In this document: positions 11,885 to 25,404 of the stretch, in pieces
How positions within the stretch are numbered: the first letter of the stretch is position 1
How the letters are laid out: each line of letters starts with the position of its first letter
Virus genome (UHGV): UHGV-1514873
Source of the DNA: a virus
DNA: 60,731 bases
Direction: 5' to 3' (one strand)
The notes under the pieces: generated by a model
Seen by the model: only the letters and a program-made list of their open reading frames with translations
What the model was told of the DNA's origin: nothing
Databases searched by the model: none
Position numbers and translations under genes: made by a program

Positions 11885-13300
11885 ATGGCTACGTGGCAAC
11901 AGGGTATTAATTCTGGTGGTTTTCTGGCTGGCATTGGTACGCAAAATGAGAATGCACCAAAGGCAAGCGACATTAACGCAACGCTTGGTCTGATTCGCGA
12001 AAACAATGAACTGGCTCGATCAGGTGCAAATAACGTTGGTCTGACCGCGTTACGTGGTCTGGCTGGAGTTGCTGATATTTACAATCAGGAACAGCAACAG
12101 AAAGCGATTAGTGCGTTCAATAAGGTTCATGCTGATGCATGGGCTTCTGGTGATCCATCGGGACTATTTAAGTTTGCCCAGGAAAATCCAGCGTTTGTTG
12201 CACAGGCACAACAGGCGTTTTCCGGTCTTAATGATCAGCAACGCAACGATATGGGCGATTTAGCCATGAGGGCTAACGTAGCTCTTTCTCAGGGACCGGA
12301 AGCCTACAGTAAATTCATTACTGACAACAAGGACAGGTTAAATCGCGTTGGTGCTAATGCTGACTGGATGATTCAGACAGGTATCCAGAATCCAGAGCAG
12401 CTATCACACATGCTGACTACTATGTCTCTCGGTGCACTTGGGCCAGAAAAGGCGTTTGCTGTTCAGGACAAGATGGCTGGTCGTGAAATTGACCGAGGCA
12501 GACTGGCAGAGACAATCCGCAGCAATCAGGCTGGAGAAGCACTTCAGGCGAGAGGCCAAAACCTTTCCTATCAGTCAGCAATGACTGGGCACAATATCGC
12601 AGCACAACGTTTGGCTCTGGATCAGCAAGAGTTCGGGTTTAAGATGCAGCAAGCGCAGGAAAAGGCTCAGCAGTTGATTAGCGAAGCACCTAAGCTGTCA
12701 GTAAACATGGAAAAAGGCATCGAGACGGCTGTAAACAATGCCACAGCATCATCAAACTCAGCCAATTCTATGAGTGCGCTTGCTCAACAGTTCAGAGCAG
12801 AAAAACCAACGACAGGTTTGTTCGGTAACGCACAGAACATGTTCGCAAAACTTACCGGAAGCGATACGACATTGCGTGATTTGCGCATTCGCCAAAATGC
12901 CCTTGTTAACAGTCAGGTTCTTAAATTCCTACCTCCCGGCCCCGCAACGGATAAAGACGTTGAGATCGTTCGTCAGGGTGCACCAACTGACATGGATAAC
13001 CCTGAGACGGTCGCAAGATGGCTTGATGCTATGGCAAACCTTGAGCGACGAAACGCGCAGTTTAATGAGTTTAAAGCCGAGTGGATGAGCGCGAATGGCA
13101 ACCCTGGACAATCGCGTAATGGCGGTCAGATATTGGGGTTGGATGTTAAAAAAGGTGAATCATTGGGGAGTGCCGTTAAGCGGTATATGTCAATGAATAC
13201 TGACGCAGCGCCAGCACAAGATTCGACACCTTCAGGAGAACCACGGAATCAGGTTGGATCATATACCTCAAAATCAGGCATTCAATTTACGGTGGAATGA
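11885..13300 (+). CDS. ejection protein, gp20-like
   Basis: 471 aa, position as P22 gene 20. Confidence 0.65.
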
Positions 13301-15138
13301 TGAAAGTAACTGCAAACGGTAAGACATTTACCTTTCCTGATGGTACGAGCACCGAAGATATTGGCACCGCCATTGATGAGTATTTTGCTGGTCAGGCTGT
13401 TCAGCAACAAACAGCTAATCAGGCCAATAATGCACCAACACGGGAAGAACCATCATTGATGCAACAAGCTGGCGATTGGCTTACTGGTAGTCAAAGTGCA
13501 GGGCAAATTGCAGAACAGGCTGGTCGTGGTCTGGTAAACATACCATTTGACGTATTGCAGGGCGGCGCAAGTCTGATTAATGCAATCAGTCAGGGGCTTG
13601 GTGGACCCAAGGTTTTGGATGATGTTTATCGTCCAGTAGACAGACCGACAGACCCCTACGCGCAAGCCGGTGAAACAATTGGTGGGTATTTAGTTCCAGG
13701 AGTTGGAACAGCAGGAAGCATGGCTATTGGATCACTGGCAGAGGCAGCAAATCAGAAAGGCGATTTCGCACAAAATGCAGCTAAAAATGCCGGAGTTAAC
13801 CTTGCCGCTCAGGGTGTTCTTTCCGCAGCAGCAAAGGGAATAGGGCGTGGAATAACGGCTATAAAAGGTGATATTGCGCCAGAAGTGGCGAAGAAAATTG
13901 CCACATCAGAATCTATGGGCGTGACACCAATGACATCTGATGTTATCCCGCCGAAAAATGCTTTCACTCGCGGCCTTACTCAGGATGCCGAGGGGGCTTT
14001 GCTCGGGACAGGCTCAAAGCGAGCGGAGCAATATGCAACGCGTAGTAAGCTGGTAAGCAATTATTTTGACCGTTTTGGTGAGTACAACCCTGATGACGTG
14101 GTGAAATCTCTGACCACCACGTTAAGGGGGCGGAAGGATGCCGCTGGCGCTGTTATCAATGACGTCACCAATAAAATGGGTAATGCCGCAGTTGATACCA
14201 CAAATACCATGAATGCTCTGAATACAGCGATCGCAAGACAGGAACGGCTTGGGACGTCTGCCAATCAAAGCCTGCTTACATCCTTGCGTAACCTACGTGA
14301 AGAATTAGCAGACCCTGCAACTGATTTGGATGTTACGTTTGATCTCTTGCGTCAGCACAGAACAGCATTTAGATCTAATGTTCAGGGAGATGCTATGGTC
14401 TTCCCCAACCAGGCAAAAGCAGCTACCAATATGGTAGAGAATGCAATGTCAAAAGACCTTCGTAACGCAGTTGCTAAAAACCTCGGTGCATCAGACGCAG
14501 CAAAATACCTTAAAGCAAATTCCGATTATGCAAACGTTTATAATAAGGTGCTTAATAAAAACATTGCTAACAAGCTCAACAAGGCAAGCAGTGAAGCCAG
14601 TCCTGAACTTATAAATACCGTTGTATTAAGCAGAAAACCATCTGACGTGAAACGAATCTGGAGCGCATTGGATGATAAAGGGAAAGATGCTATGCGTGCA
14701 GCTTACGTCAGCAAAATAGCGGAAAAGGCTGGTGACTCTCCAGCCAAGTTCATCACTGAAGTTAATAAGCTGAAATCTCAGTCAGGCGGTGAAATTTACA
14801 ACACTATTTTTTCTGGAAAGCACATGAAAGAGCTTGATGCTCTTCATGAAGTTCTACAGCAAACAGCAAGGTCAGACACCGCAAATGTAGTAACTCAGAC
14901 GGGGCAATCGCAAGCCAACAGGATAAGGACGATTGGCGCAACTGCGACTCTTGGCGTATCAATGGGGCTTGAGGCTGGTTTCGGTGCAATGATGCGCTTG
15001 TATGAGTCCAAAGCAGCAAGGAATGCTCTCTTACGTTTGGCAAACACCAAAGCAGGAACGCCAGCCTATGAAAGAGCGTTGAGTAACGCTGCAAATGCCA
15101 TCAGGCCGCTGCTTGCTACTGAGGCAACACAGCAGTAA
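13297..15138 (+). CDS. ejection protein, gp16-like
   Basis: 613 aa, position as P22 gene 16. Confidence 0.65.
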
Positions 15139-15162
15139 CGTATGGGGAATGGGATTCAATCG

Positions 15163-15552
15163 TTAACATTTTCTTTTTACTTTTCCAACAAAAGCTTTGG
15201 TTGAATCCATATTCCCATAACCAGAAATGGTTTTCGACATTAAAACTGTTCCATTAGGATGTATTACCCATGAGTCGATAACTCGTTGAGTTTCGCCATT
15301 CGCGCCGATTCCAATGATGGAGTTTTTAGACAATGCTTTGTAAGCCATGCCGCCCGCATCCGTCCCAGAATATGTGATACTGGCATCTTCACCGTTTGTC
15401 TTAATGATGAATGTTCCACTAAAACCATCTTCTTCCGGTTGAAAATTATTTCGTTCTGAATAGCTTATTCCGTGCATATCGCCAACGACCCAGCACTCTG
15501 CTGTAGCCCCAAAAGATATGAATAAGAACATAGCAGCAAGAACTTTCTTCAC
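15163..15552 (-). CDS. secreted periplasmic protein of unknown function (moron)
   Basis: Signal peptide MKKVLAAMFLFISFGATA; occupies sieA position after gene 16. Confidence 0.55.
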   Translation of the reverse strand: MKKVLAAMFLFISFGATAECWVVGDMHGISYSERNNFQPEEDGFSGTFIIKTNGEDASITYSGTDAGGMAYKALSKNSIIGIGANGETQRVIDSWVIHPNGTVLMSKTISGYGNMDSTKAFVGKVKRKC

Positions 15553-15657
15553 ACCAACCTCCTTAGTTTTGAGCAGGATACCATGAAAAAAGTAAACATC
15601 TTTTGCCTACTTCACATTTGAATGTTTTGTCATTAGGATGTTTCCGGTTTTTTAAAT

Positions 15658-16089
15658 ATGGAAATTGATATGAAGAGGATTATTAGCGTCGTTGCTGGCG
15701 CTATCATGTTATCTGGGTGCGCAACTATTGTTGGTGATGAAACGCAACTTGTGCAAGTGAACAGCAATCCTTCCGGTGCGAGCTTTAAGGTAAAAGACGA
15801 ATCAGGCGTGATTGTTGCGCAAGGTAAGACCCCGCAAGGAGTAACTCTTGCCAAGTCAGATGGTAGTTATTTTGGCAAAAAGAGCTACCAGATCACTATG
15901 GAGAAGGATGGGTACGAACCAGTTACCCTGCCAATCAAAGCCAATGCTAATGGTTGGTATATTGGTGGAAACCTTGTGTTTGGTGGGTTAATTGGTTGGC
16001 TTGCTGTAGATCCATTTAATGGTGGGATGTATACCTTGAAGCCTAAAGAGGCAAATGCATCCCTTATACCGTCCACAAAGCACGACTAA
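15658..16089 (+). CDS. lipoprotein with PEGA-like domain (moron)
   Basis: Lipobox IMLSGC; PEGA-like segment; alternative start 15670 (MKRIIS); divergent from 15163-15552. Confidence 0.6.
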   Translation: MEIDMKRIISVVAGAIMLSGCATIVGDETQLVQVNSNPSGASFKVKDESGVIVAQGKTPQGVTLAKSDGSYFGKKSYQITMEKDGYEPVTLPIKANANGWYIGGNLVFGGLIGWLAVDPFNGGMYTLKPKEANASLIPSTKHD

Positions 16090-16095
16090 TAAATG

Positions 16096-16120
16096 GAACC
16101 CACCATCAGGTGGGTTTTTT
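16096..16120 (+). terminator. terminator after lipoprotein gene, overlapping 3' end of mnt
   Basis: aacccacc/atca/ggtgggtt hairpin followed by TTTTTT. Confidence 0.6.
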
Positions 16121-16357
16121 GTACAAATCCTTCAGCGTATCAAACACCATCTTCTTAACAAGTTCGGACTGCTCATCAGCGATGCGTTCCGCATCGTCTC
16201 GATAGCCTGAAATTTTGGATGGCTTTGATACAGCATCAGTCACTATCTGAACTAATTCTGAATTAAGAGAGCGGCCATTGGATTTGGCTCGCTGTTTTAG
16301 TTTTTCCTTTAATTCGTAAGGTAGCCGCAGATTAAATTGCGGGTCATCTCTTCCCAT
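16106..16357 (-). CDS. mnt: Mnt repressor (ribbon-helix-helix)
   Basis: 83 aa, near-identical to P22 Mnt as recalled (MGRDDPQFNLRLPYELKEKLKQRAKSNGRSLNSELVQIV...KKMVFDTLKDLYKK). Confidence 0.9.
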   Translation of the reverse strand: MGRDDPQFNLRLPYELKEKLKQRAKSNGRSLNSELVQIVTDAVSKPSKISGYRDDAERIADEQSELVKKMVFDTLKDLYKKPT

Positions 16358-16420
16358 TCTTGATGCCTCGCTTTTGTGAGTGGATCGGCATCTTATTATC
16401 TGCTGGTTGCATCCTCAATA

Positions 16421-16435
16421 AGACCACAGTGGTCT
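16421..16435. promoter_or_regulatory. Mnt operator-like palindrome
   Basis: agaccacAgtggtct perfect inverted repeat, analogous to P22 Omnt, between mnt and tailspike. Confidence 0.5.
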
Positions 16436-16503
16436 CTTTGTTTGATTAATAATACATCACTGTGGCAATGCTGCGGCGATTCCTTGTATCTGGAGCAAAT
16501 TAA

Positions 16504-19449
16504 ATGACAGACATTACAGCCAATGTTGTAGTGAGTATGCCTTCGCAACTCTTCACTATGGCGCGTTCTTTTAAAGCCGTAGCCAATGGCAAAATTTATA
16601 TCGGTAAAATTGACACTGACCCGGTAAATCCTGAAAACCAGATTCAGGTTTATGTAGAGAACGAAGACGGTTCTCACATTCCTGTTTCGCAACCAATAAT
16701 CATTAACGCTGCTGGATATCCGGTATATAACGGACAGATTGCCAAATTCGTAACCGTGCAAGGCCATTCTATGGCTGTTTATGATGCGTATGGTACACAG
16801 CAGTTCTATTTTCCGAATGTGCTGAAGTATGATCCTGATCAGTTACGACAGCAATTAGAAGACCCAGATGGAGCGAATAAATACCCAAAACTTCAGATAG
16901 CAAGATGGAGAGACAGTTATGATGTAAGAGGTTGGGGGGCTATTGGTGATGGTGTTCATGATGATACATCAGCTCTATCAGAATTACTTTCTGTTGCAAC
17001 AGGTGGTGAAAAGATAGATGGGCGAGGGCTTACTTTTAAAGTATCAACTCTTCCAGATGTCAGTCGATTTAAAAATGCTCGTTTTTTATTTGAGAGAATA
17101 CCGGGTCAGCCTCTTTTTTATGCTTCTGAAGATTTTATCCAAGGAGAGTTATTTAAAATTACAGATACACCGTGGTACAACGCCTGGACGCAGGATAAAA
17201 CGTTTGTATATGACAATGTCATCTATGCGCCTTTTATGGCTGGAGACCGCCATGGTGTAAATAACCTCCATGTTGCATGGGTTCGCTCAGGAGATGACGG
17301 GAAGACCTGGACAACGCCGGAATGGCTTACAGATTTACATGAAAACTATCCCACAGTTAACTATCACTGCATGAGTATGGGGGTTGTCAGAAATCGCCTT
17401 TTTGCTGTAATTGAGACGCGGACCGTGAGCGGAAATAAACTGCAGGTTGCAGAGTTGTGGGATCGCCCAATGAGTCGCAGCCTTCGCGTTTATGGTGGTA
17501 TAACGAAAGCAGCAAATCAGCAAGTCGCTTATATTCGCATTACTGATCACGGATTATTTGCTGGTGATTTTGTCAACTTCTCAAACTCTGGTGTTACAGG
17601 TGTTACCGGGAATATGACGGTGACTACTGTCATTGATAAAAATACTTTTACAGTTACGACGCAAAATACCCAGGATGTGGATCAGAATAACGAGGGTAGA
17701 TACTGGAGTTTTGGTACATCATTTCACTCGTCACCATGGAGAAAAACCAGTCTTGGAACTATTCCTTCTTTTGTTGACGGAAGCACTCCTGTTACTGAGA
17801 TTCACAGTTTTGCGACGATTAGCGATAACAGTTTTGCTGTTGGCTACCATAATGGTGATATTGATCCACGCGAGCTTGGGATACTCTATTTCTCTGATGC
17901 TTTCGGTTCTCCTGGTAGCTTTGTTCGCAGACGCATACCTGTAGAATATGAGGCGAATGCATCTGAGCCATGTGTAAAATATTATGATGGCATTCTGTAT
18001 CTGACGACCAGGGGGACATTAAGTACTCAACCCGGTAGTTCATTGCACAGAAGCTCTGATTTAGGTACATCATGGAATTCTCTTCGCTTCCCAAATAATG
18101 TTCATCACTCAAACCTTCCTTTTGCCAAAGTTGGCGATGAGCTGATTATTTTTGGCAGTGAGCGCGCATTTGGTGAGTGGGAAGGAGGAGAACCTGATAA
18201 CCGTTATGCAGGAAATTATCCAAGAACATTTATGACCAGAGTTAACGTCAATGAGTGGAGTCTGGATAATGTAGAGTGGGTTAATGTTACTGATCAGATT
18301 TATCAGGGCGGAATAGTTAACTCTGCGGTTGGTGTTGGTTCAGTTTGTATCAAAGACAACTGGCTGTACTACATTTTCGGTGGGGAAGACTTTCTAAACC
18401 CATGGAGCATAGGGGATAACAACAGAAAATATCCTTATGTTCACGATGGTCACCCGGCTGATTTGTATTGTTTCAGGGTGAAAATTAAACAGGAAGAATT
18501 TGTTTCAAGGGATTTTGTCTACGGAGCCACTCCTAACAGAACGCTTCCTACTTTTATGTCGACGTCAGGCGTGAGGACGGTTCCTGTACCCGTTGATTTC
18601 ACAGATGATGTTGCCGTCCAGTCACTGACTGTCCATGCCGGTACATCAGGACAAGTTCGCGCGGAAGTCAAACTTGAGGGTAATTACGCCATTATTGCGA
18701 AGAAAGTACCGTCTGATGATGTTACCGCTCAGAGATTAATCGTTAGCGGCGGTGAAACAACGTCTTCAGCAGATGGCGCAATGATAACGTTGCATGGTTC
18801 CGGAAGCAGTACTCCACGTCGCGCGGTATATAACGCACTCGAACATCTTTTTGAGAACGGAGATGTTAAACCTTATCTTGATAATGTAAATGCTCTTGGT
18901 GGTCCGGGAAACAGGTTCTCGACAGTTTATCTTGGCTCCAATCCTGTGGTTACCAGTGACGGAACATTAAAGACAGAGGCGGTCTCTCCTGACGAAGCAT
19001 TGCTGGATGCCTGGGGTGACGTCAGGTATATCGCTTATAAATGGCTGAACGCTGTCGCTATAAAGGGGGAAGAAGGGGCGAGGATACATCATGGTGTAAT
19101 CGCGCAGCAACTTCGTGATGTTCTTATTTCTCACGGACTCATGGAAGAAGAAAGCACAACATGCCGCTATGCCTTTCTTTGCTATGACGATTATCCCGCA
19201 GTATATGATGACGTCATTACTGGCCAAAGGGAAATACCGCTGACTGATAATGACGGGAGCATCATTGTTGATGAGGATGATAATCCAGTGATGGTAATGG
19301 AAGACATCATTGAGCGCGTTGAAATAACGCCAGCAGGATCTAGATGGGGGGTCAGACCTGATCTCTTATTCTATATCGAGGCGGCATGGCAGCGCAGAGA
19401 AATAGAAAGAATAAAAGCTAGGTTAGACTTAATAGAAGGGAAGCACTAA
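16504..19449 (+). CDS. tailspike: P22 gp9-type head-binding domain + sialidase (endosialidase-like) domain + C-terminal chaperone-like domain
   Basis: N-terminal ~120 aa match P22 tailspike ([11 protein letters not shown]...[22 protein letters not shown]); two Asp-box motifs SGDDGKTW and SSDLGTSW; 981 aa. Confidence 0.85.
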
Positions 19450-19602
19450 ATGTTTCGTTGGCGTCAAAAATATGAACTGCTCACATAAAGAAGTAAGTAC
19501 ATTGGCAAAAAACATTGACGTCAACGAAATTAAATATAAAAATTTAAATGCTTTTTAATGACAAGAAAAGTAACTAGTGGTAAAATAACGTAGGATACTA
19601 AT

Positions 19603-20316
19603 ATGTCAAGACTCAAGACTCAAGACTCAAGACTCAAGACTCAAGACTCAAGACTCAAGACTCAAGACTCGTTTTCCGTTGATGATAATGGGTCAGGTAA
19701 TATTTTTGTATGTGGAGATCTTGTAAATAGCAAAGAGAATAAAGTTCAGTTCAATGGAAACAATAACAAACTTATTATAGAAGATGATGTTGAGTGTCGA
19801 TGGCTTACCGTAATATTTAGGGGTGATAATAATTACGTAAGAATACATAAAAACAGTAAGATTAAAGGTGATATTGTCGCAACAAAAGGTTCAAAAGTTA
19901 TTATCGGTAGAAGAACGACAATAGGTGCAGGTTTTGAAGTCGTCACTGATAAGTGCAATGTTACAATTGGCCATGACTGCATGATAGCAAGAGATGTTAT
20001 TTTGCGTGCATCAGATGGGCATCCTATATTTGATATTCATAGCAAAAAAAGGATTAATTGGGCAAAAGATATCATTATATCTAGTTACGTATGGGTAGGG
20101 AGAAATGTCTCTATAATGAAAGGGGTATCTGTTGGAAGCGGATCTGTCATTGGGTATGGGAGTATTGTAACTAAAGATGTGCCATCTATGTGTGCAGCAG
20201 CCGGTAATCCAGCAAAAATAATAAAAAGAAATATAATATGGGCAAGAACGGATAAAGCGGAGCTAATTAGTGATGACAAGAGATGCTCCAGCTATCATGC
20301 GAAGCTCACGCAATAA
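19603..20316 (+). CDS. neuO: phase-variable polysialic acid O-acetyltransferase NeuO-like (hexapeptide-repeat acyltransferase)
   Basis: ATG followed by 9 x AAGACTC (3 x RLKTQDS) then left-handed beta-helix acyltransferase body. Confidence 0.85.
   Translation: MSRLKTQDSRLKTQDSRLKTQDSFSVDDNGSGNIFVCGDLVNSKENKVQFNGNNNKLIIEDDVECRWLTVIFRGDNNYVRIHKNSKIKGDIVATKGSKVIIGRRTTIGAGFEVVTDKCNVTIGHDCMIARDVILRASDGHPIFDIHSKKRINWAKDIIISSYVWVGRNVSIMKGVSVGSGSVIGYGSIVTKDVPSMCAAAGNPAKIIKRNIIWARTDKAELISDDKRCSSYHAKLTQ
19608..19670 (+). repeat. 9 tandem copies of heptanucleotide AAGACTC inside 5' end of neuO
   Basis: Counted directly: 63 nt = 9 perfect units. Confidence 0.95.
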
Positions 20317-20753: not shown

Positions 20754-21917
20754 TTACACATCATTAGTACCTTCCTTATTTTTTGACTGGGACAAATTTG
20801 GGACCGATGGGTTCAGGATCGAGTCTATTTGCCGTGCGTGTTCGGTAAGGTGATTAGGTGCAAGGTGAGCATATCGACGAACCATTTCGATAGACTCCCA
20901 GCCTCCCATTTCCTGTAACACTGACAACGGGACTCCGGCTTGAACCAGCCAACTTGCCCAGGTGTGTCTCAAGTCGTGAAATCTGAAATCATCAATACCA
21001 GCCCGTCTCAGCGCCGCTTTCCAGGCTGTGTTTGCGTCATACCGCATCTTCCTTACTGTTGGCGCTTTCGTTCCGTCTGGTTTGGTACAGCTTTCCTTGT
21101 ACACAAATACCCAACGGTGATGATTCCCGATTTGTTTTTTCAATACGCGACATGCAGTATCATTCAGCGCAACGCCAATTGCGCGGTTTGATTTACTCTC
21201 TTCCGGGTTTATCCATGCCACCCGGCGCTGCATATCTATTTGTTGCCATTCAAGGTTGATGATGTTCGAGCGTCTTAAGCCTGTTGCCAGTGCAAATTCA
21301 ACAACAGACTTTAATGGCTCCGGACATTCATCAATCAGCCTTTGTGCTTCATGGGGCTCCAGCCAGCGGATCCGTTTATTCTTTGGTTGAGGCACTTTAA
21401 TAATTGGTGCCTTATCCAGCATTTTCCATTCACGCTCTGCGGCTCTTAGTAGGGCCTTTATAAATGAAAGATGCGTAGCCTTCGTTGCAACGGACGCTGG
21501 TTTTGGCGTGTATTCTGGAACAGGTTTCCCTTTTTTTCTGCATGCTTCTGCCCTGAGTTTCCAGTTTTCCTCATGACGCCGGTTCGTCATTTTCTGCATT
21601 GCTGAATAAATTTTTGATTCAGTAATGTCTCTTAGTTGCATTCCTGCGAAATGTTGAAGCCAGAATCCGATCCGGCTTTTGTCATCGTCCAGTGATTTTT
21701 TATGTGCTTTCTCTTCAAGCCACCTGACACACGCTTCCTCGAACGTTATATCAGGTATTTCACCAAGTTTGCTGACCCGCCATGCTTCAGCCTTTAGCTT
21801 GTCATGGAGTTCTGTCGCCTGCCTTTTGTCCTTTGTTCCAAGAGACTGTTTAAATCTTTTACCGTTCGGCAATGTGAAACTGGCGTACCATATTTCACCT
21901 CTGCGGAAGAGTGACAT
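20754..21917 (-). CDS. int: tyrosine integrase, P22 Int-like
   Basis: 387 aa, near-identical to P22 integrase as recalled ([46 protein letters not shown]...). Confidence 0.95.
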
Positions 21918-22144
21918 TTTCTTTCCTCTGTTATGCCATCACCCGCGCTCACCTGGACAGTATGCAGCGGAGACTGAAGAGCCGCAATGCAGGCTTGTCG
22001 TGTTGTGAGGTAAGGAGATTTATTCTTAGTGGGATCTTTGCGTGTTGCCTGAAGACGCCCTGTGCGTATCCAGTTAATGGCAGTCGGTCTGGATATCTTG
22101 AGAAAATGACAGGCCTCATCGAGTGTGAGGCTGTATGGCTCCAT
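21794..22144 (-). CDS. xis: excisionase, P22 Xis-like
   Basis: [38 protein letters not shown]... matches P22 Xis; internal ATG at 22144 chosen over the longer ORF. Confidence 0.85.
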
Positions 22145-22449
22145 TATTTCACCTCTTGCTGTGACATTGTTGAGAAATGGATACCAGCTCGTTGCTGCCA
22201 GACGATCCAACCGAGAGTCATATCCCATGCCATGTATTCGTTATCGCCGTTTTTTGCTCTCCGACGATCTACTAAGTCACCAAAACGCTTTTCCATGAAT
22301 AATTCATAAGCTTCGCGTTCATCTGGTTCTACTTCCAGAGATAGGAGTGCGATTTCATAAGCACGGCGCTCAATATCGTCTCGCACGTCAAGGCTGCTGA
22401 TACGCTCTTTAATTTCTTTAATCAGTTCTTTGTCGGTAAAAGTGGTCAT
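22144..22449 (-). CDS. hypothetical early protein
   Basis: 101-aa ORF translationally coupled to neighbours. Confidence 0.5.
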   Translation of the reverse strand: MTTFTDKELIKEIKERISSLDVRDDIERRAYEIALLSLEVEPDEREAYELFMEKRFGDLVDRRRAKNGDNEYMAWDMTLGWIVWQQRAGIHFSTMSQQEVK

Positions 22450-22811
22450 TATGCTCCAGCCTCCGGTGCTTTTGGCATTACTGCCCAGTGAGTGATATTG
22501 ACGTTTTCAAGGTCCCCGATCTGAAATGTCCACTGCCATTCTCCGGTTTCTTTTTGTCCCCAGGTGTACCAGAGAGAACGCCAGCCAATTAGCCAGCCTT
22601 CTCCGTTAGCATCGAATAACAAAACACTTTCATTTGCTGGTGGCAGTTCAGTTGACACTGGTATTACTTTGTTTTCCTGTGCTGCACATTTAGCTTCAAG
22701 CGCATCGAATTTACGCACCAGGTATTCAGCATCCGTTTCATTCACTTTCAGATCTCGCGGTACACATCTCCCACGAAGAAACCCTTCCATTTCGAAAACA
22801 TTCATGCGCAT
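22449..22811 (-). CDS. DUF551-like prophage protein
   Basis: 120-aa W-rich C-terminus typical of a common enterobacterial prophage family. Confidence 0.5.
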   Translation of the reverse strand: MRMNVFEMEGFLRGRCVPRDLKVNETDAEYLVRKFDALEAKCAAQENKVIPVSTELPPANESVLLFDANGEGWLIGWRSLWYTWGQKETGEWQWTFQIGDLENVNITHWAVMPKAPEAGA

Positions 22812-23338
22812 TTGCGTAACTCCGATAATTCGTTAAAGCGTTCCATAAACATCCCGTAGGCATGGCCTGGAGCCAGTGGAATCACGTTGAACATCTCTGT
22901 TGCCGGGATACCTTCCAGCACAGGCCAGAAAGAGCCATCATCAAGCCCGAGATCGCGGCGTTCGGTTGCCAGCATAATGAGATCGGCATATTTCACTGGC
23001 GTGCTCATAACAGGAGGTAACCCGTATTTCTCACGGATTACGGCGTCTATTTTTTCTTCCATCCGTTTATAGTCAGGAAGAAGTCGTTTCAGTTGTGCGG
23101 GGATGTCCTGGCAATATGCTTCTGTTGCATCATGCATTAAAGCTTCAAAAGCAAATTCCTGCGGCACCAGCTGGCTGCAAAGCACCGCATGTTGGGCGAC
23201 ACTGTAGAAGTGTGAAAGATGTCCTGCAAAGCGACAGATATTTGAAAGGGAAACCGCGATATCGTTAATAACGATGTCGTCTTTATTTATCCTGTCATAA
23301 TAAAAATGCTTCCCGGAAAAAGTTTTAATAAATGACAT
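22802..23338 (-). CDS. HD-domain phosphohydrolase (YfdR-like)
   Basis: H..HD motif (VAQHAVLCS...ALMHDATEAY); ATG at 23338 with GGAG RBS preferred over GTG 23365. Confidence 0.7.
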   Translation of the reverse strand: MSFIKTFSGKHFYYDRINKDDIVINDIAVSLSNICRFAGHLSHFYSVAQHAVLCSQLVPQEFAFEALMHDATEAYCQDIPAQLKRLLPDYKRMEEKIDAVIREKYGLPPVMSTPVKYADLIMLATERRDLGLDDGSFWPVLEGIPATEMFNVIPLAPGHAYGMFMERFNELSELRKCA

Positions 23339-23365
23339 TTTGTTCTCCACGTATATGCGCTGCAC

Positions 23366-23880
23366 CGCGCTGAATTCGGGTAAAAGGAAGCCCTCACCGT
23401 CCGGCGGTTATTGAGTCAATTACATTTCCATAAATGCCCCCGTAGGGGCGGTTAGTTTCTCCACAAAACAGAGAAGAACACCTGCGGTGGCAGCCGCCCG
23501 GATGGATTGGGTTATGAGCCCGTCGTCCGGTGATGCTCTTCTCTGTTTTGTAAAAAGGACGGTACCAGCCGGAAGCAAGGGTACAAACTGGTACCGCCAG
23601 GACTACACACAGCATAAAGTTGTGGTGCCGGGTGCCTCCCGGTGCCTGGCGAAGGTTGCACACCAGGCGGGTGGGTATCCACAGAAGGTCGACTGTCAGC
23701 CTCAACCTTAACCCGCGTGCGCTGAGCCGCATTCACCACAACGCTAAGGATTCTCTCTGGTTGAAAATACTTAGCTGTTATGTGCCTGCTTTTAGCCACA
23801 TCAGGCGAGGTGGACCTAGTTATTCCCCAACAACAAGGATTCGGTTAATCTGGTTATCCCCAACAACGCAAAAGGAAAAG
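23366..23880. other. GC-rich structured non-coding segment (candidate ncRNA/regulatory leader)
   Basis: ~515 bp with no plausible ORF in any frame; several strong inverted repeats; degenerate direct repeats CCCCAACAAC...GGATTC. Confidence 0.3.
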
Positions 23881-23882
23881 AA

Positions 23883-24317
23883 ATGTCCGGTAATATCTAT
23901 ACGCTGTACAAATCCCACTGTGAAAATGTTGGAAAGTATCGGGGCATTGAAATCAGTGGGGTAGTGTCATCAGTCGAAATAAGCAAAGTTGAATCAAGGG
24001 CAACATTACTTACTCTTTTGGACCTTGTCTTACATGAGCACCGGAAGAAATTCGGCACTCCCTATAATCAGTTGAATGGGAAAAAGGCTCTGGTTCACCT
24101 TATTCTGATGAAGCATCACTGGATGCCAAAACAGATTAATGAGATGAAATTTGATGAACTTCTTCTTTCAATTCAGGATGAACTCACACTTGATAAAATA
24201 AGCGTAACCGCCCAGAAATTTTTAGATTATCGAGACTGGAGATCACAAATTCATCACTTTGATGATTTTGACGAAAATGAATGGGATCCTAATTTGTCTG
24301 CACAATATCTAAAGTAA
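23883..24317 (+). CDS. hypothetical protein (AT-rich moron, antisense to early-left transcription)
   Basis: 144-aa ORF with RBS aaaggaaaag; low GC; + strand terminator at 24554-24578. Confidence 0.55.
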   Translation: MSGNIYTLYKSHCENVGKYRGIEISGVVSSVEISKVESRATLLTLLDLVLHEHRKKFGTPYNQLNGKKALVHLILMKHHWMPKQINEMKFDELLLSIQDELTLDKISVTAQKFLDYRDWRSQIHHFDDFDENEWDPNLSAQYLK

Positions 24318-24495
24318 CATCCTGTGATAAAACCGTGATTTCCTGATCCAGTTTTTTTAAGGAGTCTATTGTTTCCTGTCGATAAGACAGCACTTCACGA
24401 AGCTGGTTTATAGCTGCCAGCTTCTTTGTCATCCACTCATAAATTTCCTCATCTGTGTAGCCAGGCGCGACGATTTTGGGTTCTGTTTTGTGCAT
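24289..24495 (-). CDS. hypothetical small protein, convergent with 23883-24317
   Basis: 68 aa from ATG 24495 with GAGGAG RBS; 3' ends of the two genes overlap by 29 nt. Confidence 0.45.
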   Translation of the reverse strand: MHKTEPKIVAPGYTDEEIYEWMTKKLAAINQLREVLSYRQETIDSLKKLDQEITVLSQDVTLDIVQTN

Positions 24496-24553
24496 TTCAC
24501 ATCTCCTCAAGTTATCAGTTACTTGTTGATGGGGACCAGATTGTTAAAGAGCT

Positions 24554-24578
24554 AAGCGTCCTGTAGGGCGCTTTTTTG
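24554..24578 (+). terminator. Rho-independent terminator (+ strand)
   Basis: agcgtcc/tgta/gggcgct hairpin followed by TTTTTTGTT. Confidence 0.55.
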
Positions 24579-24693
24579 TTGCTAACGAATCATCCTGGAC
24601 TTCATATGCCCCAGGCGGCTACTTCGTGGGCGTCCTGCCTGTTCGTTGTTTCGCTTGGGTACATTATGTATCTCAAAGGTACATTGTCAAGTA

Positions 24694-24717
24694 TAAAAAA
24701 ACCTGCCGAAGCAGGTT
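24694..24717 (-). terminator. terminator downstream of cI
   Basis: acctgc/cgaa/gcaggt hairpin with T-run on minus strand. Confidence 0.6.
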
Positions 24718-24729
24718 CATAAACATTGA

Positions 24730-25404
24730 TTAGGCTTTGATTTTGTATCTTCTTGGTTTTCCTGAGAAAATCACTGTACCAATTATAGAGCAATTACCGT
24801 TGATCTTAATGTAAGGCTCAGGCCAGTTTGGGTTTAACGCTTTGAGATAACGCTGTGTCCCATCTTCTATCAACCTTTTGAAGGTGGTTTCGCCTGTATC
24901 GTGCATCAATGCAATAACGTCGTCACCGTGGCAGGCAGGTACTTCAGGATCGACAAAAATCATGTCTCCCGGGCGGTACTCATCAATCATTGAATCACCT
25001 ATCACCCGCAAGATATAAGTCATTTCCCCACAGGGTACAGGGCAGGGATACGTTTCTGCTGTGCTCAAATCAACCTCAGAATATCCAACTTCTTTCCATG
25101 CTCCGGCCTGTACCCATGATATGACAGGGACTAATGTGATTTGTTTATTAGTGATTGAAACATCAGGTTTTTTTGTGATGTTCGTTGTCTGGTGTTCTTG
25201 ATCGAGCCATCCGACAGGCAGGTCGAAACATTTTTCGATGTGTCGTGCCATGCTGTCACCGATATTTTTAGTAGCACCATCTCCCATAAACCTGCTGGTC
25301 TGGGTTGGCTCGCGATCAATCATAGTGGCAAAGGAAGAATTCCCGCCAACACCATCTCTCAGTTTTCTGGCGTTAGACCGCCGGATGTCATGGATTGTTT
25401 TCAT
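24730..25404 (-). CDS. CI-like repressor (HTH + LexA-like S24 peptidase domain)
   Basis: 224 aa; C-terminal S24-type segment (VIGDSMIDEYRPGDMIFVDPEV); divergent from cro. Confidence 0.8.
   Translation of the reverse strand: MKTIHDIRRSNARKLRDGVGGNSSFATMIDREPTQTSRFMGDGATKNIGDSMARHIEKCFDLPVGWLDQEHQTTNITKKPDVSITNKQITLVPVISWVQAGAWKEVGYSEVDLSTAETYPCPVPCGEMTYILRVIGDSMIDEYRPGDMIFVDPEVPACHGDDVIALMHDTGETTFKRLIEDGTQRYLKALNPNWPEPYIKINGNCSIIGTVIFSGKPRRYKIKA

Follow-up and report, generated by a model that had tools for sequence, protein, structure and literature searches.

A probable ant moron carrying a predicted exported Hex-family protein, a lipoprotein and an orphan Mnt repressor in a P22-like prophage

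A variable region between gene 16 and the tailspike gene

The 60,731 nucleotide stretch of DNA analysed here (the window) is the virus genome UHGV-1514873, and the subject of this report is its accessory region at positions 15139-16503. This region spans the interval from the stop codon of a gene for a P22 gp16-type DNA ejection protein (13297-15138, plus strand, from the list of open reading frames) to the ATG of an endosialidase tailspike gene of the CUS-3 type (16504-19449, plus strand, assigned with Pfam), the two genes forming its left and right borders. It contains a gene of the Hex family for a predicted exported protein of 129 residues (15163-15552, minus strand), a gene for a lipoprotein of 139 residues (15670-16089, plus strand) and mnt, encoding an orphan Mnt repressor of 83 residues (16106-16357, minus strand), with an operator of the Omnt type (16421-16435) between mnt and the tailspike gene. 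An earlier note, made from the letters of the DNA, had listed a signal-peptide protein, a lipoprotein, mnt and a palindrome at these positions, and all of them were found there; only the start of the lipoprotein is likelier at 15670 than at 15658.

Around this region, the window matches a chromosomal prophage of the poultry E. coli strain E1 with 100% identity; for this prophage, RefSeq names the product of 13297-15138 a 'P22-gp16 family phage DNA ejection protein'. In tblastn searches, P22 gp16 matches related loci with 75-80% identity. The genes follow a P22-like order (portal, scaffold, coat, gp4, gp10, gp26, gp14, gp7, gp20, gp16, the accessory region, tailspike). The tailspike carries the Pfam domains Head_binding (P22), End_N_terminal, End_beta_propel, End_tail_spike and Peptidase_S74 (the C-terminal chaperone), and its gene has the same length as CUS-3 siaK1, 2946 nt. 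The P22-like gene order, the endosialidase tailspike and a downstream acyltransferase gene of the neuO type therefore identify the element as a relative of the K1-specific phage CUS-3. At the same place, CUS-3 itself carries six different genes, namely hkcB, two unnamed genes, two mnt genes and ant.

The interval between genes 16 and 9 of P22 has been named the 'ant moron', and ten types of it were distinguished among sixteen genomes (Villafane et al. 2008, PMC2629481). Comparison with the immI regions of P22-like phages, a check proposed in the earlier note, showed the present locus to be this known variable region. The arrangement is not particular to this element: ST64T, ST104 and Para1 retain only mnt and one unknown gene there (PMC2629481), and phage L is likewise mnt-only, its genome paper asking if mnt 'could have acquired another function or be a remnant' (Zaworski et al., 10.1101/2020.10.05.325894). 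mnt also lies directly before the tailspike gene in ST160, SE1, Gally and vB_EcoP-720R6. Like the window, ST64T, L, ST104, Para1, ST160 and SE1 have the same deletion junction, the same operator type (Gln6 in Mnt with AGACCAC half-sites, see below) and mnt directly before the tailspike gene. The mnt-only phages of the ST64T/L type carry small genes of the orf59a/orf62 type beside mnt, whereas the window carries the lipoprotein gene of epsilon34 (gene 15) and the Hex-like gene instead; the window also differs from them in having an endosialidase as its tailspike.

Megablast divided the region into three mosaic blocks, 15100-15583 (Emek, 95%), 15550-16204 (epsilon34 genes 15-16, 95%) and 16097-16511 (ST160/SE1, 85%). 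One cassette border was placed at a candidate promoter element at 15575-15583, because the 95% homology to Emek stops at 15583. Slot, co-occurrence and operator counts were made on 80 viral contigs or loci chosen by Mnt protein similarity alone; related loci among them are non-independent samples. The slot after gene 16 holds sieA in 8 of these loci, a Hex-like gene in 16, hkcB in 10, or none of these, and never two of them together. Beside mnt, the lipoprotein gene (37 loci) alternates with orf59a (30 loci), the two never occurring in the same locus. The Hex-like and lipoprotein genes are present together in only 10 loci, both also occur upstream of a complete mnt-arc locus, and each is found alone in siphovirus prophages, so that the linked pair, or module, envisaged in the earlier note was not borne out.

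The region is thus probably the ant moron of a CUS-3-like, P22-like prophage, built from three independently moving cassettes. The joint explanation that we favour, with a similar degree of confidence, also takes in an exported Hex-family protein, a lipoprotein moron and an orphan Mnt whose site is still in use. The kind of variable region is known; new are the link to the Hex family, as far as we could find, the doubt that it raises on the site of action of Hex, and an orphan Mnt-Omnt pair under selection. None of the three proteins matched a PADLOC family (E up to 0.1).

The two envelope-targeted proteins

Both neighbours of mnt are envelope-targeted morons, as had been proposed, one protein having a Sec-type leader and the other the lipobox LSGC. 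The Hex-like reading frame opens with a GTG codon five bases past AAGGAGG, and its N-terminus (MKKVLAAMFLFISFGATA|EC) is a typical Sec signal peptide with cleavage predicted after ATA. In the E1 prophage, RefSeq starts this gene at a later ATG (369 nt), which drops the Lys-Lys N-region and ignores the AAGGAGG ahead of the GTG; judging from these signals, we think that the later start is wrong. The mature protein gave a confident model of an 8-stranded beta-barrel with the conserved residues Cys20 and Cys129. The element at 15575-15583 (TGgTATCCT, minus strand), read from the sequence, is a candidate extended -10 element for this gene.

A word-based search with the 129-residue protein returned close relatives only; an exhaustive search returned 94 representatives of 120-150 residues. 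Members of the family share the leader, an invariant Cys that follows the cleavage site, the motif E-T-W and, at the C-terminus, FVG.V.G.C. Among 50 aligned members, all 50 start with a hydrophobic leader, Cys20 is invariant and Cys129 is present in at least 90%, and the same cysteine pattern is seen in the Hex protein of phage 434. When phage genomes were searched by tblastn, a full-length match of 29% identity (E 1e-7 to 2e-8) was found directly after the repressor gene in phages 434, Sf6 (gene 38), HK446, HK633 and Sf101; this gene is hex. Direct comparison with 434 Hex gave E 2e-15 in BLASTP and a probability of 99.8% in hhalign (E 2.4e-30), and the two proteins have in common their length, the N-terminal hydrophobic leader, a mature start E-C-W, the ETW motif and the C-terminal FVG.V.G.C. 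By these comparisons, the 129-residue protein is a member of the family of phage 434 Hex (= Sf6 gp38). PHROGs lists this family as phrog_2651, 'unknown function', and phage and RefSeq records call its members 'hypothetical'. Other matches, to large repeat proteins, were rejected; they looked compositional, and unrelated Pfam domains are present in those proteins. The genetic setting of the two genes differs: in 434, hex follows cI and shares its transcript from PRM, whereas the window gene is on the antisense strand behind gene 16, with no repressor gene nearby, and would need its own promoter.

The Hex-like gene occupies the slot of P22 sieA in the same orientation, antisense and directly after gene 16, and the two genes are mutually exclusive in related loci. 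P22 SieA spans the inner membrane several times (Leavitt et al. 2024, PMC10883804), whereas the window protein is modelled as a soluble exported barrel. A tblastn search with P22 SieA gave no match in positions 12001-20000 of the window, and both envelope proteins of the region have an N-terminal leader only. No terminator-like hairpin was found 3′ of the Hex-like gene on the minus strand (15139-15175, -0.2 kcal/mol). Transcription of this gene may continue, antisense, into the last part of the gp16 gene. The antisense RNA STnc6030 of prophage BTP1, located at the gp16 junction, confers immunity to BTP1 (PMC7067206).

Relatives of the Hex-like gene were seen in other settings. In the P22-like contig L014 (3359-4164), the slot after gp16 is filled by two antisense genes in tandem, each for 128 residues, the first product being 50% identical to the Hex-like protein. 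A 33%-identical relative lies antisense between tail genes and the tape-measure gene in siphovirus-type contigs (L018 5001-6822; L017 5001-5384). In L018, this gene stands directly beside rexA and rexB, in what looks like a small hot spot of defence genes within the tail-gene cluster.

We propose that the Hex-like protein is made from the prophage, would be exported to the periplasm and would there interfere with infection by other phages (heterologous exclusion), the step affected being most likely the delivery of DNA across the envelope. As Susskind and Botstein (1980) are reported in PMC3564112, Salmonella lysogens of lambda-imm434 exclude superinfecting P22 unless hex is mutated; this is the only case in which such exclusion is known for the family. 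The superinfection exclusion suggested in the earlier note thus stands for the 129-residue protein to the extent of indirect support, drawn from the Hex homologue and from the lack of co-occurrence with sieA or hkcB in the 80 loci. This support, by association and through a distant homologue with a phenotype, is real though indirect, and is not proof.

The likelier start of the lipoprotein gene is the ATG at 15670, which is also used by RefSeq and phage records; the alternative start at 15658 gives 143 residues. In the 139-residue form, the lipobox MLSGC occupies residues 13-17, its Cys being present in all of 28 homologues. The Ala found at +2 predicts, under the classical +2 rule, sorting to the outer membrane. 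The protein is 98.6% identical to that of epsilon34 gene 15, and its homologues amount to 715 clusters in Enterobacterales. It had been described as PEGA-like. The AlphaFold model is compatible with this description, being a beta-sandwich (pLDDT, the per-residue confidence of the model, is >90 for most of residues 25-93 and <50 for 96-118), but the match to PEGA (PF08308) scores 17.5 bits and falls below the Pfam threshold of 20.8. The model does not place a conserved Gly-rich hydrophobic segment, NGWYIGGNxVFGGLIGWLxVDPFNGGMY. A Foldseek search of the PDB with the model gave only weak Ig-like or transthyretin-like domains (best E 0.017). BFVD yielded only uncharacterised phage proteins, and no significant match came from profile searches of the PDB sequences. 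For neither envelope protein was a functional name obtained from Pfam, NCBIfam, PHROGs or PADLOC. A match of the lipoprotein to the Cor PHROG was discarded as evidence of kinship, since it covers the signal peptide and lipobox only (residues 5-24, E 7.7e-4). The receptor-blocking phage lipoproteins Cor (phi80/N15) and Llp (T5) are likewise small, prophage-encoded and located in tail-gene clusters.

Relatives of the lipoprotein (68-77% identity) occur as morons in prophages of the siphovirus type from E. coli, Proteus and Pseudescherichia vulneris (L009-L013 6001-6414; L179 and L181 5001-5411; L182-L184 5001-5414), always on the sense strand. Most of the contigs examined have them immediately ahead of the tape-measure gene, or else between gpI and gpJ; in the exceptional Proteus contig L180, the gene is further upstream of the tape-measure-sized gene, beside a repressor-like gene. 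HK97 gp15, an inner-membrane protein, is encoded between gene T and the tape-measure gene. HK97 gp15-like morons are placed before the tape-measure gene in the account of Cumby et al. 2012 given in PMC10461980, and homologues of both envelope proteins of the window hold a slot next to this gene in siphovirus prophages.

A consensus scan found a promoter-like site (TTCACA-17-TAGGAT, 9/12) ahead of the lipoprotein gene at 15611-15639 on the plus strand, inside the block shared with epsilon34 gene 15, which begins at about 15550. The gene is followed by an intrinsic terminator with a 9-bp GC-rich stem and a U-run on the plus strand (16096-16121), overlapping the 3′ end of mnt. The scan listed its stem on the minus strand, and the same stem folds on both strands (-15.4 kcal/mol on the plus and -14.0 kcal/mol on the minus strand, z about -3); in epsilon34 it is annotated as a rho-independent terminator. 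The lipoprotein would be an outer-membrane protein expressed in the lysogen, with exclusion or host fitness both possible roles.

That one or both envelope proteins would be host-fitness or virulence factors like lambda Bor or Lom, and not anti-phage proteins, is conceivable but in our view rather unlikely. The host lineage is extraintestinal K1-type E. coli and the prophage also carries neuO, which would suit such factors, as would the wide distribution of the lipoprotein family in Enterobacterales prophages, with no member having a known anti-phage role. However, both families recur beside genes of DNA delivery or host recognition (gp16, tape measure, gpJ, tailspike), in a slot also used by sieA, one set of neighbours of the Hex-like relative includes rexAB, and 434 Hex has a genetic exclusion phenotype.

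A different function has been proposed for 434 Hex itself, which would shield the 434 and P22 repressors from RecA-stimulated cleavage by way of a 6-kDa fragment, 'sHex' (Shkilnyj et al. 2013, PMC3564112). If the Hex-like protein acted in this manner, it would block RecA-stimulated autocleavage of repressors in the cytoplasm and stabilise lysogeny without exclusion. It is true that spontaneous induction, dependent on recA, goes up 30-fold when hex is mutated and that the Hex fragment stops cleavage of the 434 and P22 repressors in vitro (PMC3564112), and the window element is P22-like. Nevertheless, we regard such a role as improbable. Each of the 50 aligned family members opens with a hydrophobic leader, the barrel model and the pair of conserved cysteines indicate a location in the periplasm, and members of the family are found in structural-gene slots far from repressor genes. 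In 434 hex (L177 1929-2405), the leader MIRIAALLSILLTTSANS is followed by ECW, with predicted cleavage ANS|ECW, and the published start of the active sHex, Glu43 of the 158-residue frame, is exactly the first residue past this predicted site. Overexpressed full-length Hex was found to be toxic and its processing puzzling (PMC3564112); export of Hex would explain the toxicity and make the cytoplasmic mechanism doubtful. These features suggest that 434 Hex is exported, contrary to the mechanism proposed for it.

Orphan mnt and its operator

The mnt product matches two Pfam families, Arc with 78.8 bits against a cut-off of 20.4 and Repressor_Mnt with 66 bits against 20.9; its N-terminus is a ribbon-helix-helix and its C-terminus the domain by which Mnt forms tetramers. 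It is 76% identical to P22 Mnt and 92% to ST160 Mnt, and was aligned also with epsilon34 Mnt. Its recognition strand reads RDDPQFNLR, against RDDPHFNFR in P22, Gln6 and Leu9 replacing His6 and Phe9. PHROG 795 and derived RefSeq records (NC_011976, NC_014900, NC_011802) name this protein 'partition protein ATPase', which for an 83-residue ribbon-helix-helix repressor is a propagated misannotation.

Compared with the immI region of P22 (mnt-Pmnt/Pant/Oarc/Omnt-arc-sar-ant), the window lacks arc, sar, ant and the ant terminator. P22 Arc and Ant used as tblastn queries detected the Mnt N-terminus only, and the tailspike ATG comes next, 147 nt from the mnt start, in agreement with the statement of the earlier note that neither arc nor ant precedes the tailspike gene. 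With no arc or ant gene and no strong rightward Pant overlapped by operators, the window does not hold a complete P22-type immI region. The 146-bp spacer between mnt and the tailspike gene aligns without gaps with the P22 mnt-arc control region up to the operator, and then with the final ~45 bp of the leader of gene 9 in P22, so that immI is indeed reduced here to mnt and a true Omnt homologue. The homologue of Pmnt, found by gapless alignment with the annotated P22 promoter, lies at 16390-16418 on the minus strand (-35 TTGAGG at 16418-16413, 17-bp spacer, -10 TAAGAT at 16395-16390). The operator, the palindrome AGACCACAGTGGTCT at 16421-16435 (AGACCAC-A-GTGGTCT), aligns column for column with P22 Omnt (GGTCCAC-G-GTGGACC), the half-sites AGACCAC and GGTCCAC differing at two positions each. 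It is two bases from the -35 hexamer of Pmnt, a spacing identical to that of P22. At the position of Pant, the alignment with P22 gives the hexamers TCGGCA and TGCATC, and a consensus scan found no sigma-70-like promoter site between mnt and the tailspike gene. The tailspike leader (16460-16503, plus strand), whose homologue in P22 is the ~45 bp immediately preceding gene 9, has the ribosome binding site GGAG and is conserved across loci.

The window contains six perfect 7-N-7 palindromes where 3.9 are expected from shuffles, which is not significant alone; the significance of the operator comes from homology, conservation and covariation, and not from palindromy itself. The best candidate for a second Mnt site in the window has at least three mismatches, which is the chance level. 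The palindrome with its T-rich tail, considered as a weak terminator (-8.7 kcal/mol, z -1.9), was rejected as a conserved feature, the T-run being missing in ST160-type alleles.

Mnt is of the Gln6 type in 65 of the 80 loci, and the tailspike gene is the next gene in all 65; AGACCAC-N-GTGGTCT is present at the same offset with at most one mismatch in 64 of them. By comparison, eleven loci of the P22 type (His6, 77-78% identical) have GGTCCAC and arc, and in four further His6 loci (80% identical) ant follows about 790 nt downstream, with no comparable operator at that offset. This covariation of Gln6 with AGACCAC and of His6 with GGTCCAC indirectly supports binding of Mnt to 16421-16435. A search by operator pattern retrieved 76 contigs, of which seven have arc behind the same operator and three of these also ant. 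The Mnt-like proteins of the seven arc contigs are only 58-67% identical to that of the window, and the three distinct N-termini listed (L070, L075, L082) have the Gln6 strand; the full immI loci with an AGACCAC-type operator have the consensus TTGACA at Pant. Since the AGACCAC operator precedes arc-ant and a consensus Pant elsewhere, the site in the window would be a true Omnt type and the promoter that it covered would have decayed in the orphan version.

Several features indicate how the orphan pair evolves. Among 23 distinct spacers, all four nucleotides occur at the centre base of the operator and the half-sites hardly vary; variation is greatest, with indels, on the right of the operator. 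Between two orphan lineages that share the deletion junction (the ST160/L-type allele and the window), the ratio of non-synonymous to synonymous substitution (dN/dS) in mnt is 0.08-0.11 at dS 0.41-0.48, calculated pairwise against the window allele only. mnt is full-length in 126 of 128 genes. On this comparative evidence, orphan mnt and its operator are maintained by selection. The two truncated genes (L156, L161) encode 52 residues without the tetramerisation domain and lie beside half-site mismatches (AGATCAC; GTGGTCA), which could mean joint decay of gene and site.

Mnt would then still be made and bound to 16421-16435. Autoregulation at Pmnt is the simplest and most likely role, because the operator abuts the Pmnt -35 hexamer in all versions. 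Mnt may also act in trans on incoming relatives that have ant behind the same type of operator. The tailspike gene would have no promoter of its own and would presumably be reached, as in P22, by antiterminated late-operon transcription through the terminator at 16096-16121.

The earlier note had suggested that Mnt may gate read-through into the tailspike gene. The one form in which this could work has Mnt at the operator as a roadblock limiting late-operon read-through, or leakage in the lysogen from the lipoprotein promoter, into the tailspike gene. The operator lies 76 nt before the tailspike ATG, in the path of every rightward transcript, it is conserved in the mnt-tailspike loci, and the epsilon34 paper speculated that Mnt and Arc affect read-through into P22 gene 9 (PMC2629481). 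We nonetheless doubt this idea strongly, and gating at the level of a promoter lacks support: there is no rightward promoter to occlude, the Pant hexamers are TCGGCA/TGCATC and the right flank is the most variable part. In addition, the spacing between operator and Pmnt is constant whether arc or the tailspike gene follows, which fits a role at Pmnt, and in some loci the functional start of the tailspike gene comes only after ~280 bp of unrelated DNA past the operator. That mnt and operator are a decaying, functionless remnant of a lost immI region, as the authors of the phage L genome considered (10.1101/2020.10.05.325894) and as the decayed Pant and the two truncated genes with mismatched operators would allow, is very unlikely in view of a dN/dS of about 0.1 over a synonymous divergence of 0.4-0.5 in two lineages with the same arc-ant deletion junction, of 126 intact genes in 128, and of half-sites kept while centre base and right flank vary freely.

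Four contigs (L115, L143, L147 and L161, first 470 nt past the mnt start) have the operator and, behind it, what is left of the usual tailspike start, now dead (ATGACAGATATT...); AT-rich DNA of ~280 bp comes next, and after it the start of another tailspike gene (ATGCCTAATATAACTCC...). This arrangement appears to be the scar of a tailspike exchange. In the lambda-like E. coli prophage L010 (10809-12414), gpL is followed by a ClpP-like protease gene, an 82-residue Arc/Mnt-like gene, a small open reading frame of ribbon-helix-helix type and a Bro-N/P22_AR_C antirepressor gene, with repeats of the CACGGTGTAG type between the genes; it looks like an immI-like module with a different operator in a siphovirus tail cluster. 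As an E. coli example of ant behind the operator type of the window, it was rejected, the repeats being different.

The following points weigh against the explanation favoured here. With 29% identity, the homology to Hex is distant, no model in Pfam, NCBIfam or PADLOC covers the family, and a fold search with the barrel model returned generic barrels only. The cytoplasmic action proposed in the sole biochemical study of Hex misfits an exported protein and would mean a different role. Pmnt matches the consensus in 8/12 positions, below the scan threshold of 9. The related loci being non-independent, conservation counts overstate the evidence, and the dN/dS values share the limit of their pairwise design. 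As to action in trans, no E. coli phage with ant behind an AGACCAC-type operator was found among the loci retrieved; the full immI loci that have this operator are not E. coli-like, and the closest relative of such a locus among sequenced phages is an Erwinia phage (80%).

Neighbouring genes and meaning of the region

On the 3′ side of the tailspike gene, an open reading frame of the neuO type (19603-20316, 237 residues) begins with 9.3 perfect copies of a heptanucleotide (TCAAGAC register, 19606-19670); CUS-3 neuO has 19 copies. Because nine copies leave the frame open, this phase-variable capsule O-acetyltransferase gene appears to be switched on here. Beyond neuO (20754-25000), an integrase gene (387 residues, minus strand) is followed by genes of the yfdR/yfdS type belonging to a second prophage-like element, which is found in most E. 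coli genomes. No tRNA gene was detected in the whole window, and an Rfam search matched no known RNA family.

A wider reading can be offered more tentatively than the cassette structure. The Hex family may be a widespread, unrecognised class of prophage superinfection-exclusion proteins, exported periplasmic beta-barrels acting on the delivery of incoming DNA, with three hot spots: after cI (434/Sf6-type), in the sieA slot (P22-like phages) and beside the tape-measure gene (siphoviruses). The orphan Mnt would be kept as a trans-acting guard against the antirepressors of incoming relatives, and the published cytoplasmic mechanism of Hex would be secondary, or an artefact of a leaderless fragment.

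In P22-like phages, functions expressed by the prophage to block related phages, such as SieA and STnc6030 of BTP1, are documented to be concentrated in the gap from gene 16 to the tailspike gene. The presence of a Hex relative in the gp16 slot gives an annotation lead for phrog_2651, ties an exclusion phenotype of 1980 (P22 by imm434 lysogens) to a testable class of proteins and raises doubt on the cellular site of Hex. The evidence for selection on orphan mnt speaks to the question asked in the phage L genome paper, whether the gene is a remnant or has a new function. As K1-specific CUS-3-like phages affect capsule modification in invasive E. coli, the phages that their lysogens exclude would be of some practical interest for K1 phage therapy.

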